Below, piece by piece: positions 1,986-11,736 of a stretch of 64,000 nt of DNA (positions are counted from its first letter, which is position 1; each line of letters begins with the position of its first letter). The DNA lies in contig DYGY01000001.1 in the NCBI GenBank assembly GCA_020724425.1, positions 19,080 to 83,079 of the forward strand. Reading direction: 5' to 3'. The stretch is from Thermaerobacter marianensis. Lineage in GTDB: Bacteria > Bacillota > Sulfobacillia > DVGY01. The notes under the pieces were generated by a model, which did no database searches, was not told where the DNA came from, and saw only the letters and a program-made list of their open reading frames with translations. A program made the position numbers and the translations under genes.

Positions 1986-2648
1986 ATGGGTTCTAGAGCA
2001 CGATTAGGTGTTAGAAGGCGAATCCAGATCACTCCTTTATTATGGGTATTTCTTATCATTATCTTCTTGGTTTCTAGTTTTTTTGTGGTTGATAGGACTT
2101 TAAGTCCAACCTTAAGGGTTATTGCAACCAAGCAGACCTCAGCATATACTTTAGAGGTTCTAGAACGGAGTATTCAGCAAGAGATTGTGAACAAAGTGGA
2201 TTATAGTGACTTGATTATTTATTCTCTTGATAGTGATGGTAGGGTAGCTTTCATGCAGGCTAATACCATAGAGATTACTCGTTTATCAACCCAGACAGCT
2301 ATCGTTATTCTAGAGGACTTGAGGAAGCTAGAAGGTAGGAGTTTCACTATTCCTACAGGGCAACTATTAGGTAGTGATCTTTTAGCTAGTTATGGACCAG
2401 ATATTAAGGTGACAATGATTCCTACCGGTACTGTGGATGTACGGGTAGGGGAGAGCTTTACTGAAGCAGGTATCAATCAAACGCGGCATATGCTTTATTT
2501 AGACATTAAGGCAGAGGTTAGAGTGGTTGTACCTTTGTTTAAAGAGGATACTGTTGTGGAAACTAGGGTACCATTAACTGATTTTGTAATTGTCGGGCCT
2601 GTACCATCAATGTATGTTAAGATTGGTGATCTATCATTGGGTAGATGA
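1986..2648 (+). CDS. yunB: Sporulation protein YunB
   Basis: N-terminal TM, IPTGQLLG..GP.I.V, F..AGINQTRH, ETRVP...VIVG.VP YunB-like motifs. Confidence 0.85.
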   Translation: MGSRARLGVRRRIQITPLLWVFLIIIFLVSSFFVVDRTLSPTLRVIATKQTSAYTLEVLERSIQQEIVNKVDYSDLIIYSLDSDGRVAFMQANTIEITRLSTQTAIVILEDLRKLEGRSFTIPTGQLLGSDLLASYGPDIKVTMIPTGTVDVRVGESFTEAGINQTRHMLYLDIKAEVRVVVPLFKEDTVVETRVPLTDFVIVGPVPSMYVKIGDLSLGR

Positions 2649-2673
2649 AATATTACGAATGTAGAAATAGTTC

Positions 2674-2703
2674 TTGACGTTGGTCTTACCCGGAGAGTAT
2701 ACT
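2674..2703 (+). promoter_or_regulatory. SigA-type promoter for the leader-peptide/ABC operon
   Basis: TTGACG-18 nt-TATACT. Confidence 0.6.
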
Positions 2704-2747
2704 GAATAAAGGTTAGAAAATATTTCTTAGTTAAAGGAGGTCGTGAA

Positions 2748-2846
2748 ATGATTCGTTTACTGAATGCAGTTGTGCGTACAAGGGATATTTGTGTCCTTTT
2801 TGCAGGCAATCTAGCTATTTCGCGACCTATGGTTTTGCGTGTCTAA
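2748..2846 (+). CDS. Putative 32-aa leader peptide (MIRLLNAVVRTRDICVLFAGNLAISRPMVLRV)
   Basis: Near-perfect RBS AAAGGAGGT 6 nt before ATG; lies between the promoter and the attenuator hairpins; below the ORF-track length cutoff. Confidence 0.7.
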   Translation: MIRLLNAVVRTRDICVLFAGNLAISRPMVLRV

Positions 2847-2858
2847 CTAGAACGTAAT

Positions 2859-2959
2859 GGCCATGGGTTTTGGAAAAAACCTGTGGCCTTTTTATTTGTC
2901 TAGAACATGGAGATTCTATGTTTTTAGTCATAGGCCACAGGTCTATGACTATTTTTTTT
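2859..2959 (+). promoter_or_regulatory. Transcription attenuator (anti-antiterminator / antiterminator / intrinsic terminator)
   Basis: 13-bp hairpin 2859-2888; ACCTGTGGCCT (2879-2889) is the exact reverse complement of AGGCCACAGGT (2932-2942); 12-bp terminator stem 2925-2951 followed by T8. Confidence 0.8.
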
Positions 2960-2973
2960 GGGAGGTTAAGGAA

Positions 2974-3792
2974 ATGTGGGCTTTGGAATGTAATAATGCA
3001 GTCAAGAGTTTCTATGAAGCAGAAAACAATGGTAAACACAGTTTGTTTTCCAGGCCTAAGAAGAAGGAGATATTTGCGGTTAACCGGGTCAGTTTTCAGG
3101 TTGATAAGGGTGAGACTTTCGGAATTCTTGGTCAGAATGGCTCTGGTAAATCAACCTTGATTCGTTTAATCTCTACCCTTTTGTTGGCTGATGAGGGAGA
3201 GATTAAGGTCTTTGGTCATAATGTTCTAGATGAAAGACTTGAGGTTAGAAGGCTTATTAACAGGGTTTCTGTTGATGCAGCATTTTTCAAGAAGTTATCA
3301 GCCTGGGAGAATCTTTTGTATGCAGCAAGGTTATATGGTCTGAATGTTGAGGAGGCTAAGCAACGTAGTCTTGAGATTCTTGAACGTCTTGGTTTAGGTG
3401 CTGAGAAGTTTAACAGCCCTTTAGAGAATCTTTCAAGGGGACAACAGCAAAAGGTAGCTGTTGCTAGGGCACTTCTAACCTCACCGGTATTGCTCTTGCT
3501 GGATGAACCAACTACAGGCTTAGATCCCCGTTCCAAAAGGGATGTACAGGACTTCATTGTTGAAGTGCAAAGGGAACATGACGCGACGATACTGCTAACA
3601 AGTCATGACATGTATGAGGTAGAAAAGCTTTGTAATAGGGTAGCAATTTTGCATGAGGGCAGATTGGTTGCCATGGATACACCGGAAAACCTTAAGAGCA
3701 AATATGGAGAGACAGAGGACTCTTCTTTAGAGGATGTTTTCTTTACTCTAACTGGGATGGATTGGAAGGAGGTACTAGAGGATGTGGAGTAG
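2974..3792 (+). CDS. ABC exporter ATP-binding protein (ABC-2 / DrrA-like)
   Basis: Walker A GQNGSGKS, LSRGQ signature, LLLLDEPT, H-loop; start moved to ATG 2974 after GGGAGG. Confidence 0.93.
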   Translation: MWALECNNAVKSFYEAENNGKHSLFSRPKKKEIFAVNRVSFQVDKGETFGILGQNGSGKSTLIRLISTLLLADEGEIKVFGHNVLDERLEVRRLINRVSVDAAFFKKLSAWENLLYAARLYGLNVEEAKQRSLEILERLGLGAEKFNSPLENLSRGQQQKVAVARALLTSPVLLLLDEPTTGLDPRSKRDVQDFIVEVQREHDATILLTSHDMYEVEKLCNRVAILHEGRLVAMDTPENLKSKYGETEDSSLEDVFFTLTGMDWKEVLEDVE

Positions 3793-4591
3793 TTTGGCTT
3801 CGTTATGGCATGATACAAAAGCTAGTCTGGCTTTTGTGGAAAGGAATTTTAATCTAGTCAAGCGTTATTTTGCCTGGGAAGTGGTTTTTCTTTTCTATGC
3901 TATTGTAAATACATTGACTATTGGTCTGATTGGTGTGCGTTTGGGTCCTGAAGAGGTTCTCTATTTGGTTGTTGGGGCTCTTCTTTGGGGGTTCTTATCG
4001 GTTCTCTTTAATGAGGTAAGTCAGTCTGTTTCCTGGGAGCGCTGGGAGGGTACCATAGAGTATACCTTTATGGCTCCGGTCAGACGTATGTCCTATCTGT
4101 TAGGTGTCAGTTTTTTTGCAGTGCTTTATGGGGTCATAAAGACATCAATTCTCTTGCTTGCGGTTGCTTTCTTTTTTGAGATAGATCTATCAGGGGCTAA
4201 TTTGTGGGCTGCTCTTGTTATCCTGGTGATTTCGAGTTTTTCCTTGATTGGATTGGGATTGATTGCTGCTGTGTTGCCTTTGATGTCCCCGGAAAGAGGC
4301 CCTCAAGCTACTCATATCATTCAGGGTTTTATCCTTTTGATATCGGGTATATACTATGAGGTAACTGTGTTGCCTAGTTGGTTACAGGTGTTCTCAGCCT
4401 TTTCTCCGGCAACCTATACTCTTAGGGCTGCTAGGCAGGCTATATTAGAGGGTGCTTCTGTATGGCAACTGATGGGTGATATCCAGATTCTAATTCTCTT
4501 TGGCATTATCCTTATTCCTCTAGGCTATTGGATTTTTACTCAAGGTGAGAAGTATGCCATGAGGACAGGAAAATTAAAGAGGAATGGCTAG
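3782..4591 (+). CDS. ABC-2 type exporter permease
   Basis: About six hydrophobic segments, WERWEGTIEYTFMAP loop, overlaps the ATPase stop. Confidence 0.9.
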   Translation: MWSSLASLWHDTKASLAFVERNFNLVKRYFAWEVVFLFYAIVNTLTIGLIGVRLGPEEVLYLVVGALLWGFLSVLFNEVSQSVSWERWEGTIEYTFMAPVRRMSYLLGVSFFAVLYGVIKTSILLLAVAFFFEIDLSGANLWAALVILVISSFSLIGLGLIAAVLPLMSPERGPQATHIIQGFILLISGIYYEVTVLPSWLQVFSAFSPATYTLRAARQAILEGASVWQLMGDIQILILFGIILIPLGYWIFTQGEKYAMRTGKLKRNG

Positions 4592-4601
4592 GAGAATCCG
4601 T

Positions 4602-4991
4602 ATGACTATTCCAAAAGTGTTTTTGGATATTCTTATAGAGTATGCTAAGGATAGCAGGGAAGTCTGTGGTTTTCTTTCTGGAAAAAATGACAGAGTATTT
4701 AGTCTGTTTGTGATAACTAATATGGCAAAGAGCAGAGACCGTTTCAGGATGGCTGAAGAGGAGGTGGTCTCTGCTCTTCACTTGATGGAATCTGAAGGAG
4801 AGGATTTGTTAGCTATCTGGCATTCTCATCCGGGCGGGAGGGCAGAGCCCTCTTTAGTCGATATTAGGGAACATAGTTTTCCTGAGGCTATAGCGATTAT
4901 AGTTTCTGGTTCATCCATAGCAGGTTTTTCCTTAAAAAATGAGAAAATATTAGAAATTGACCTTGACTGGGGAGGGATTGATTGTGAGTAG
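4602..4991 (+). CDS. JAB/MPN+ (Mov34) domain metalloprotease
   Basis: E(REVCG)...WHSHP...S..D JAMM motif intact; alternative start at 4584. Confidence 0.85.
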   Translation: MTIPKVFLDILIEYAKDSREVCGFLSGKNDRVFSLFVITNMAKSRDRFRMAEEEVVSALHLMESEGEDLLAIWHSHPGGRAEPSLVDIREHSFPEAIAIIVSGSSIAGFSLKNEKILEIDLDWGGIDCE

Positions 4992-5724
4992 TGAGCAGCT
5001 TGCTCAAGCTTTAGTAGATTGGATTAAGGAAAAGAGTGCTGGTGCAAAGGGATTGGTTGTTGGATTAAGTGGGGGAGTTGATTCTGCTGTTGTAGCAGGG
5101 TTAATTAAGAGAGTAAATCCGGAGAGTTCTCTAGGGGTGATTATGCCCTGTTATTCAAACCCTCTAGATGAGGAACATGCACGTCTGGTGGCTGCAGCCT
5201 TTGATTTGGAGGTAAAGAAAGTAGATTTGGGACCAACGTTTGATCTGCTTTTAAATACAATTGATTCAGGTTTAGAAGTTTCTAAAGGGGATTTGGCTAC
5301 AGCTAATGTTAAGTCGCGTTTGCGTATGGTTACTCTGTATTTCTATGCAAACAGGTTGAACTATATGGTTGTGGGCACAGGTAACAAAAGTGAGCTAGTT
5401 GCCGGCTATTTTACTAAGTATGGGGATAGTGGTGTAGATATTTTACCTCTGGCAGATTTAGTTAAGGATGAGGTTCGGGAGCTTGCTAGATACCTAGGTG
5501 TGCCTGATGTTGTCATTGATAAGGCTCCTTCTGGGGGATTATGGCTTGGTCAGACTGATGAGGAAGAGTTAGGGGTAACTTATGCACACCTTGATGAATA
5601 TATACTCACAGGTATGACTGATTTAGAGGCTATGAATAGAATTCAGATTCTAGAGAAAAATAGTGAACATAAGCGGAGAATGCCAGCTATAGCTTATAAA
5701 AATGAGGTATATAAAAATTATTAA
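4984..5724 (+). CDS. nadE: NH3-dependent NAD+ synthetase
   Basis: GLSGGVDS, N.KSRLRM, GTGNKSE, GYFTKYGD; no glutaminase domain. Confidence 0.95.
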   Translation: MSSEQLAQALVDWIKEKSAGAKGLVVGLSGGVDSAVVAGLIKRVNPESSLGVIMPCYSNPLDEEHARLVAAAFDLEVKKVDLGPTFDLLLNTIDSGLEVSKGDLATANVKSRLRMVTLYFYANRLNYMVVGTGNKSELVAGYFTKYGDSGVDILPLADLVKDEVRELARYLGVPDVVIDKAPSGGLWLGQTDEEELGVTYAHLDEYILTGMTDLEAMNRIQILEKNSEHKRRMPAIAYKNEVYKNY

Positions 5725-11118: not shown

Positions 11119-11736
11119 TTGTATAAGAAGCTTTTCTTTGATAACTGGAAGACTGCTTTAACTTCAGTTGTAGTCATTATTCTTGGTTTGGTAACAGGCT
11201 TTTATATGTCTCTTAATGTGCAGGAGGTTCCGGATCCTCATGTTGAACTGCCTAAAGAACAGTTTGGTGAAGCAAGATCTCTTTCCTGGCCTGGATTAGG
11301 AAAAGATGATGGCAGACAAAGACTGGTGGCTTCGGCAGGACCTGTGGTTCAACCTGGGACAAGTCTCTTTAGAACTGTTCTCTATCGAGATTGTGGTTTG
11401 GTAGAGAGTACTGTGGAGGGAGTACCTGAAGAATGGATTGGTCTTTCTTCGGTAATGTTAAACCAGGTACTAGATGACTGGCATGTGGTTAGTCTTGATG
11501 CTTCCACGTTGCATATTCTGAATCGTAGTAGAGATGATTGCCCTAAAGGTCAGGGAGTTACTTTAGGAAGCAGAGATGGAAAGTTAGTTGTCTATCAAGG
11601 TAATGGTTTGCTTTTAAGGGAGACAGAGTTCTCTTTGGATCGTCTGTTGCCTAGTGAAAGGGAAGTGTTGCTGGAAGGTATCTTTTTTGAAACTGAAGAG
11701 GAAGCTCTAAAATATCTGGAGGGACTCGGAGAGTAG
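11119..11736 (+). CDS. bofC: BofC C-terminal domain-containing protein
   Basis: N-terminal TM; C-terminal G..DG.L.VY.G...ET......L...E...L..GI......EA...LE.L pattern; synteny upstream of ruv. Confidence 0.65.
   Translation: MYKKLFFDNWKTALTSVVVIILGLVTGFYMSLNVQEVPDPHVELPKEQFGEARSLSWPGLGKDDGRQRLVASAGPVVQPGTSLFRTVLYRDCGLVESTVEGVPEEWIGLSSVMLNQVLDDWHVVSLDASTLHILNRSRDDCPKGQGVTLGSRDGKLVVYQGNGLLLRETEFSLDRLLPSEREVLLEGIFFETEEEALKYLEGLGE

Follow-up and report, generated by a model that had tools for sequence, protein, structure and literature searches.

We report on a leader region ahead of an ABC-2 exporter operon in a 64,000-nucleotide (nt) stretch of DNA assigned to Thermaerobacter marianensis (assembly GCA_020724425.1, contig DYGY01000001.1, positions 19,080 to 83,079 of the forward strand; hereafter, the window). 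The leader encodes a 32-residue peptide in a short upstream open reading frame (uORF), followed by hairpins that include two intrinsic terminators. The feature is real and is probably a leader-peptide attenuator of the bmrB/vmlR kind, with a mechanism known in kind. Modelled folds indicate that it probably regulates transcription of the exporter operon by sensing where ribosomes are positioned on the uORF. A uORF with a conserved motif and terminator hairpins was identified at about 40 of 86 loci encoding homologues of the DrrAB-like ABC-2 ATPase. Outside the species of the window, these homologues share 52-66% amino acid (aa) identity with the window ATPase and come from other orders and phyla. 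A full-text search of the literature found no description of this leader, and the family, with its co-encoded peptide motif and relay of five helices, is apparently undescribed.

In model Bacillota, attenuators that sense ribosomes are familiar from a small number of resistance genes. The same principle appears to operate here on an ABC-2 exporter, the ATPase of which retains 52-66% identity between distant phyla. The leader and its five-residue motif have persisted in, or spread among, Bacillota, Symbiobacteriaceae and three classes of Chloroflexota. The dozens of natural variants are a comparative data set for dissecting a five-helix relay with tandem terminators, and the motif is a candidate new ribosome-interacting peptide motif. 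The leader also provides a handle on the role of the exporter, in that the inducer is probably what the pump removes or protects against. The window itself contributes the Bacillota branch and the relay with tandem terminators, and it allows S-R-P-[V/M] to be aligned with G-R-S-[V/A]-P.

Organization of the leader

The features of the leader and the two exporter genes are as follows (positions in the window, all on the + strand). Helices are named P1, AT1, T1, AT2 and T2, where T denotes a terminator and AT an antiterminator, and SD is the Shine-Dalgarno sequence.

2674-2703, +, sigma-A-type promoter; the sole promoter-like site within 2300-3300
2733-2741, +, SD of the uORF, AAAGGAGGU, read from the sequence; AAGGAGG is kept in Bacillota-type homologues
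2737-2750, +, 5' arm of P1 (3' end of the SD, spacer and AUG); its partner is 2816-2828 in the box (duplex -19.6 kcal/mol)
2748-2846, +, leader-peptide uORF of 32 codons, MIRLLNAVVRTRDICVLFAGNLAISRPMVLRV; a called ORF in public collections, with homologous uORFs at about 40 loci
2816-2834, +, the box, or switch segment; 2816-2828 serves as the 3' arm of P1 and 2818-2834 as the 5' arm of AT1
2835-2857, +, small predicted hairpin at the apex of the AT1 hairpin; its loop contains the uORF stop codon
2859-2898, +, T1, the first terminator: 13-bp hairpin (2859-2888) and U tract UUUUUAUUUG; in AT1 its 5' arm (2859-2875) is paired with the box instead
2879-2942, +, AT2, the second antiterminator: 11 Watson-Crick pairs (-22.2 kcal/mol) between 2879-2889 (T1 3' arm) and 2932-2942 (T2 core)
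2902-2924, +, middle hairpin predicted inside AT2, 10 bp, weak
2925-2959, +, T2, the second terminator: 12-bp stem (2925-2951) and U8 (2952-2959), from folding and a terminator scan
2960-3792, +, SD GGGAGG and DrrA-like ABC ATPase, 272 aa, ATG at 2974, from protein-family matches
3782-4591, +, ABC-2 permease, 269 aa, from protein-family matches; RNA contigs lie on it in run X13

Much of this anatomy had been proposed in an initial annotation made from the sequence alone, and all of the elements listed there were confirmed. The SigA promoter consists of TTGACG (2674-2679) and TATACT (2698-2703) separated by an 18-nt spacer (10 of 12 consensus matches), and promoters occur at the equivalent position in homologous loci L003, L004, L008 and L009. 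We place the transcription start near 2710, which would give a leader of about 250 nt. The proposed ribosome binding site and uORF are present (SD AAAGGAGGT, ATG at 2748, TAA stop at 2844-2846, 32 codons). The peptide had been described as unannotated, but the exact product is already present on five contigs in a public protein collection that draws on NCBI, IMG and other sources, and the ORF is also called as a gene in 96%-identical relatives; it should carry a leader-peptide annotation. Searches of Pfam-A and NCBIfam returned no significant match for the window peptide or for nine homologous peptides.

The hairpin reported to begin 12 nt past the stop occurs at 2859-2888, with 13 bp, two of them G-U pairs, and a GGAA loop. 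It is terminator-like in its own right, with UUUUUAUUU directly 3', which corrects the initial annotation. The noted complement between ACCUGUGGCCU (2879-2889) and AGGCCACAGGU (2932-2942) is exact. A nested hairpin placed at 2900-2927 was found at 2902-2924 and is weak (10 bp, -7.5 kcal/mol); a hairpin with a different GC-rich sequence occupies this position in L003, L009, L012, L015 and L057. The last terminator, a 12-bp stem followed by U8, lies just before the ATPase SD (GGGAGG, 2960-2965), and the ATPase ATG is at 2974 rather than 2975.

The fold of 2705-2975 is strongly non-random (z = -5.98; none of 200 shuffles was equally stable). Only 2 of 300 dinucleotide shuffles of the leader contain an exact inverted repeat of at least 11 nt, giving a chance probability for AT2 of about 0.007, and two terminator-like sites were found where 0.5 are expected. 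The remark that four of the five uORF arginine codons are CGN is borne out by comparison with 35 long ORFs of the window, in which the proportion is 28% (binomial p = 0.024). The codon of R26 is CGA, the rarest arginine codon in these ORFs (3.5%). A T-box was considered for the leader and dropped. Guanidine-II-like tandem hairpins were also dropped; the loops here are GGAA and ACA, not ACGR.

A relay of five helices

Two pairings absent from the initial annotation, P1 and the helix between the box and the 5' arm of T1, extend the known elements into a chain: P1 (2737-2750 with 2816-2828), AT1 (2818-2834 with 2859-2875), T1, AT2 (2879-2889 with 2932-2942) and T2. Each helix excludes its neighbours, so there are two self-consistent folds, P1 with T1 and T2, and AT1 with AT2. 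The P1 helix has 13 bp and closes a multi-branch (three-way) fold at 2737-2828. Predicted energies are -32.7 kcal/mol for the P1 domain, -25.0 for the AT1 hairpin, -19.4 for T1, -29.7 for the AT2 domain including the middle hairpin, and -16.0 for T2. The box at the center of this chain encodes the conserved peptide motif, S25-R26-P27-M28-V29 (2820-2834).

Conservation of the pairings was evaluated in 37 located and aligned uORFs, each compared with 200 shuffles. Complementarity between the box and the T1 5' arm has z < 0 in 36 of the 37, and in about half of them only 0-5 of the 200 shuffles are as good. The T1-3'/T2-core antiterminator of the initial annotation is real and recurs in homologues with tandem terminators (z = -2.3 to -6.3). 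P1 has z values of -2 to -5.5 in most Bacillota-type loci and in some Anaerolineae. It covaries in L003, L009, L012, L084 and L026: the arms are GGUCGUGAAAU/AUUUCGCGACC in the window, GGCCGUGA/UCACGGCC in L009 and UCUGCGAAA/UUUCGCAG in L012 (where Arg is replaced by Gln), and L084 has an unrelated 15-bp pair. Terminator stems of many homologues carry the common words CCAUGGG, CCACAGG or CCGUGGG. The stems are alike across phyla because they are complementary, and then again complementary, to the motif codons (CCU-RUG gives CAYAGG).

We also recovered a strain that is about 96% identical to the window at the DNA level. No ATPase relative at 66-90% identity was found among 5.8 billion proteins, so close-range covariation rests on this one relative. 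Between T1 and T2 (2847-2960) there is a single difference in 114 nt (0.9%), A2874G in the T1 loop, as compared with 3-5.5% in the flanking yunB, ATPase, permease, JAB and nadE genes. We read this low divergence as purifying selection on the hairpins. All three differences within the uORF are non-synonymous (V8A, C15S and S25L). One of them, C2821U (Ser25 to Leu), is paired with G2745A in the spacer between the SD and AUG, so that a predicted G-C pair becomes A-U. This double change suggests that the SD/AUG region pairs with the 3' portion of the uORF.

A leader family shared across phyla

We define the family by three features: a uORF of roughly 20-35 codons in which the motif lies 3-10 codons ahead of the stop, complementarity of the motif segment to the 5' arm of the first terminator, and an ABC-2 ATPase and permease downstream. 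The window has each of these features (R26 in S-R-P-M-V; AT1 at -18.0 kcal/mol, z = -3.6; ATPase and permease directly downstream). Carriers are found in Bacillota, Symbiobacteriaceae and three classes of Chloroflexota, with one or two terminators each. The initial annotation had named absence of the uORF or hairpins from relatives as grounds for rejecting it; uORF, motif and hairpins are in fact kept across phyla. BLASTN and TBLASTN of the leader and peptide against 80 ATPase loci gave no match; it was the architecture alone that revealed the family. Similarly, phmmer with the window peptide against 1.8 billion representatives matched only the peptide itself. A metagenome pattern search (AAGGAGGYC-N5-8-ATG-N55-82-TTTCGCGRCC) returned 89 matches, none with a matching uORF or ATPase downstream, and these look like chance occurrences.

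The motif across the family is [G/S]-R-[S/P]-[A/V/M/I]-[P/x], 3-10 codons ahead of the stop, and the conserved arginine is at codon 21-26 in 32 of the 37 uORFs. In Bacillota and Symbiobacteriaceae it takes the form [I/F]-S-R-P-[V/M/I/A], as in the peptide ends AISRPMVLRV (window), YISRPVPVLFTL (L003), VISRPVPSRVR (L015), GISRPAADSLR (L057) and LFSRSVLGIEP (L085), each followed directly by the stop codon. The form in Chloroflexota is G-R-S-[A/V/M]-P, with C-termini such as DGRSVPWSR, GRSAPISS, PGRTAPVCC and HSRSAPVHRQG. The motif codons are GGG CGU AGU GCG CCU in Anaerolineae and GGG AGA UCU GUG CCC in Limnocylindria, and the arginine is CGA or CGG in the Bacillota type. Because R and S are thus written in different codon families between classes, selection appears to act on both the peptide and the RNA.

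The R-T-R sequence that the initial annotation had highlighted is not the conserved part of the peptide, which is instead ...[I/F]-S-R-P... (S25-V29), although an early R-x-R or RR is present in many family peptides. The spacer between the stop codon and T1 also varies among homologues, from 6 to about 42 nt.

Several loci encoding the exporter differ in what precedes it. Anoxybacter fermentans (L175) has the exporter without a recognizable leader of the window type. In L176, L177 and L178, from the cultured carriers Thermoactinomyces sp. and Staphylospora marina, the tandem terminators are separated from the ATPase start by another small ORF (2311-2424 in L176 and L177, 2220-2378 in L178). 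These ORFs encode 37-52 aa with the common stretches ...RESIINDKIRGF... and ...RDSVIGDDIGHG..., and the permease at these loci is followed by a HisKA_3 kinase and a LuxR-type response regulator. In Bipolaricaulota (L013, L014 and L036), the same exporter has a different conserved leader about 330 nt upstream of the ATPase, with a TTGACA...TATACT promoter, a GGUCCCUAAGGACC hairpin and a six-codon ORF (AUG AGG AGU AAC GCG CUC UAA). The contig of L015, labelled 'MAG: Mycobacterium leprae' (MAG, metagenome-assembled genome), bears a Symbiobacteriaceae-like leader and exporter, closest to those of L057, and looks mis-binned or mislabelled.

Ribosome position and the proposed mechanism

The full leader was folded with a ribosome mask of -12/+15 nt, a crude approximation, at every codon of the uORF. 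Without a ribosome, P1, T1 and T2 are complete in the predicted fold (OFF). P-site codons 1-3 give full AT1 and AT2 but no P1 (ON), and with P-site codons 4-18, P1, T1 and T2 form again (OFF). At P-site codons 19-31 the ribosome is on the box, so that neither P1 nor AT1 is predicted and T1 and T2 are complete (OFF). P1, T1 and T2 are likewise complete at P-site codon 32, with the stop codon in the A site. We also folded queues of two ribosomes. A leading ribosome at codon 11 (R-T-R) with a trailing one at codon 1, or at codon 14 with a trailing one at codon 4, gives AT1 and AT2.

These folds suggest how the switch may work. The promoter of the leader would yield a transcript that either stops at T1/T2 or reads through, depending on the first ribosome or ribosomes on the uORF while RNA polymerase transcribes T1. 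A ribosome that reaches the box in time would lead to termination, as would the lack of any ribosome. A ribosome on the SD and start, or a queue behind a leading ribosome stalled at about codons 11-14, would leave the box naked to pair with the T1 5' arm. The T1 3' arm, freed by AT1, could then capture the T2 core, and both terminators would be read through. Thus the exporter may be induced, like bmrB-bmrCD and vmlR, upon early slowing or block of uORF translation, of which ribosome-targeting compounds are one possible cause. In this scheme, the R-T-R of the window peptide could act as an early stall site via ribosome queueing, and the conserved motif together with the rare CGA codon at R26 may slow or park the ribosome on the box to give a tight OFF state.

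Several observations weigh against this scheme. All of the states are thermodynamic predictions. For a transcript extending to 2890-2898 with the start masked, the minimum free energy (MFE) structure is T1, not AT1; read-through therefore needs AT1 that forms before the T1 3' arm appears and persists as a kinetic trap. When the transcript extends only to 2875, AT1 is favoured over P1 even with no ribosome bound, and the predicted OFF outcome in the absence of ribosomes is therefore less certain. Masking the start flips the MFE of the whole leader in about half of the homologues tested (in the window, L009 and L176, and partly in L057 and L084, with no flip in L085, L012, L015 and L179), so we relied on the arm-by-arm duplex tests. 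We detected no counterpart of P1 in the Limnocylindria loci examined. The N-terminal part of the peptide, where the inducing stall is proposed to occur, is not conserved, and the model gives the conserved motif a supporting role only, which is a weak account of so conserved a feature. Finally, leader and operon have similar depth in metatranscriptome contigs, giving no evidence for termination at about 2955 in situ, in data from which transcript ends are unreadable because they are assembled contigs.

Alternative explanations

The conservation of the motif at the peptide level in different codon families across phyla raises the question of whether the nascent peptide itself is the sensor. In a ligand-sensing arrest peptide, the motif would stall the ribosome only when a small molecule (exporter substrate, antibiotic or metabolite) is bound in the tunnel or peptidyl transferase center, and this stall would be the regulatory signal. 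It could be inducing, by a route beyond simple refolding, or repressing, by forcing T1/T2. The motif lies 3-10 codons from the C-terminus, as do critical residues of TnaC, SpeFL and SecM/RAPP peptides, and its Arg followed three residues on by Pro resembles RAGP/RAPP (PMC12992588, PMC10951233). A ligand would be the natural modulator, because the peptides are too short for force-release. The modelled folds argue in the opposite direction. A ribosome on the motif masks the 5' arm of the antiterminator, and T1 and T2 form at P-sites 19-32, so that arrest there would favour termination rather than read-through and the ligand would turn the exporter OFF, which is odd logic. The final Pro is also absent from the window peptide (S-R-P-M-V) and from several Bacillota members. 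We thus consider a ligand-sensing arrest peptide unlikely. A broader version, which we hold tentatively and rate only a little higher, is that, from Chloroflexota to Bacillota, the RNA switch segment also encodes a nascent-peptide module of a new class, [G/S]-R-[S/P]-[A/V/M]-[P], that pauses or arrests the ribosome. Peptide and RNA would then form one integrated sensor of the exporter substrate or of a widespread ribosome-targeting natural product.

The initial annotation was supported in its view of the region as a promoter-driven leader with a translated-looking uORF and mutually exclusive hairpins before an ABC exporter; it was the proposed trigger that did not hold up, along with the R-T-R motif. 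It assumed that hairpin 1 and the terminator form by default and that a ribosome paused near the uORF stop melts hairpin 1 and turns the antiterminator ON. The complement between the T1 3' arm and the T2 core on which this relies is real and significant, only 12 nt separate the stop from hairpin 1 in the window, and blocking even the bottom 2-3 pairs beside the U tract could weaken the terminator. The stop-codon trigger is nonetheless unsupported, because the mask of a ribosome at the stop ends at about 2856, the hairpin starts at 2859 and the spacer varies. All 13 pairs remain intact, the fold with the P-site at codon 32 leaves T1, T2 and P1 fully formed, and the geometry differs among homologues, in which spacers range from 6 to about 42 nt. 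The conserved pairings of the box with the SD and with the T1 5' arm are also ignored by this explanation, which now appears improbable.

It is very improbable that the leader is a structured non-coding RNA (a riboswitch or protein-binding RNA) in which sensing is done by the three-way fold that P1 closes (2737-2828) and the ORF has no role of its own. The uORF region does fold into a closed multi-branch domain of -32.7 kcal/mol, and the 96%-identical relative has only non-synonymous uORF differences, including one pair that is compensatory in the RNA. Against this, the domain interior is conserved neither in sequence nor in length, and there was no Rfam 15 match with E < 2 across 2000-3600 of the window and none at gathering score in nine homologous loci. 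What is retained, in about 37 instances, is an uninterrupted reading frame with a strong SD, a start codon and the motif in frame; R and S are written in different codon families.

Least probable of all is an independent small-protein gene with its own promoter and T1, whose product acts in trans (as an accessory subunit or substrate of the exporter) while the exporter is controlled separately: the motif is conserved and always linked to this exporter, T1 resembles a complete terminator and the ORF is called as a gene in public sets, but no promoter is evident after T1 and ahead of the ATPase, whose start is 22 nt beyond the end of T2, the AT1 and AT2 complementarities would have no purpose, and only about five residues are conserved, the rest being variable and not membrane-like.

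Comparison with known attenuators and arrest peptides

The leader has the anatomy of bmrB/vmlR-type attenuators, with a co-transcribed short ORF that has its own SD and start codon and intrinsic terminators (T1 and T2) before the gene; exclusive anti-antiterminator, antiterminator and terminator structures overlapping the ORF are predicted computationally. The system that works most similarly is bmrB-bmrCD of Bacillus subtilis, in which transcription of a multidrug ABC transporter is attenuated through ribosomes on the leader and induced by translation inhibitors (PMC4191407; PMC13689557). Both have a leader ORF, apparently translated in the window, that is co-transcribed with an ABC exporter, and alternative anti-antiterminator, antiterminator and terminator stem-loops. 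In both, slowed translation leads (in the window, by prediction) to read-through, and rare codons may set ribosome timing. The systems differ in that BmrCD is a type-I heterodimeric exporter, whereas the window exporter is of the ABC-2 type. Comparison of BmrB with the window peptide, done without alignment, detected no relationship. Also unlike bmrB-bmrCD, the window has tandem terminators and a second antiterminator, its anti-antiterminator sequesters the SD and AUG of the uORF itself, and its switch segment encodes a peptide motif kept across phyla.

Leaders of the vmlR type are closest with regard to the role of the start region. In the leaders of vmlR (B. subtilis) and related ABC-F resistance genes, induction results from ribosome stalling on a short uORF, at its start or close to it (PMC9226507; PMC13689557). 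In the predicted ON state of the window, similarly, a ribosome on the binding site, start or early codons blocks an upstream helix and permits the antiterminator, and both are Bacillota systems with intrinsic terminators. However, the genes regulated by vmlR-type leaders encode ABC-F ribosome-protection factors rather than membrane exporters, and the uORFs are shorter and without a cross-phylum C-terminal motif.

The predicted order of states (no ribosome, OFF; early stall, ON; downstream segment reached, OFF) and the overlapping, exclusive hairpins are also those of the trpL, hisL and pheL attenuators. Unlike these, the window leader precedes an exporter rather than a biosynthetic operon and has five helices rather than three. 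A trp-type amino-acid attenuator was rejected, as no common enriched residue or codon run exists across the 37 peptides.

With SecM, ApdA, ApdP and ApcA, the window leader shares a small upstream-encoded peptide with conserved Arg, small residues and Pro near the C-terminus (PMC10951233, PMC10951299, PMC12992588). The R-S-A/V-P of Chloroflexota has the same Arg-to-Pro spacing as R-A-G-P, and the motifs examined in PMC12992588 do not include RSAP or RSVP. Membership in the RAPP/SecM type was rejected on two features. The core in the window is S-R-P-M-V, not RAPP, RGPP or RAGP, and the N-terminal signal or transmembrane segment is lacking in these peptides of 19-34 aa, the N-terminal halves of which are variable and in many cases polar. 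With the motif at about residue 21-26 of such a peptide, the chain would still be inside the exit tunnel and too short for force release. The gene downstream in the window is also not a Sec or YidC component.

TnaC and SpeFL are alike in being short leader peptides (24-34 aa) with conserved residues near the C-terminus that control downstream transcription. They act by blocking Rho loading at the stalled ribosome. The window terminators are intrinsic instead, and the folds predict that a ribosome at the motif or stop favours termination.

Genomic context and transcription

Upstream of the leader are tyrS and then the sporulation gene yunB, which marks the host as a spore-forming member of the Bacillota. 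The host is known only from metagenomes of subsurface, sludge and bioreactor origin. The permease has no match in the PDB.

Two metatranscriptome runs were examined over the first 12 kb of the window. RNA contigs cover 2732-2946, 2951/2977-3191, 3298-3493, 3705-4024 and 4416-4630, with one more at 11149, and none was found on tyrS or yunB (2000-2670). As assembled contigs, these data show presence only. The pattern fits a transcript that runs from the predicted promoter into the exporter genes. A further run, X9, is labelled 'METAGENOMIC RNA-Seq' and covers genes and spacers evenly over 12 kb, which is DNA-like; it was discarded as expression evidence.

Downstream of the permease are genes for a JAB/MPN-domain protein and nadE (4584-5724), with frames that overlap or abut. 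The best NCBIfam match of the JAB/MPN protein is 'desampylase', under its cut-off. The RNA contig at 4416-4630 bridges the permease/JAB junction. In other lineages, JAB and nadE are without linkage to the exporter.

One public gene call (P0005) starts the ATPase at an in-frame ATG at 2857, giving a 311-aa protein extended through both terminator hairpins (2857-3792). This long form is almost certainly an artefact of a mis-called start. Among strain variants, a 1-nt deletion right after the -10 box (2705) occurs in four runs, including otherwise identical strains, and the 96%-identical relative has a 1-nt insertion between the ATPase SD and ATG (2971).

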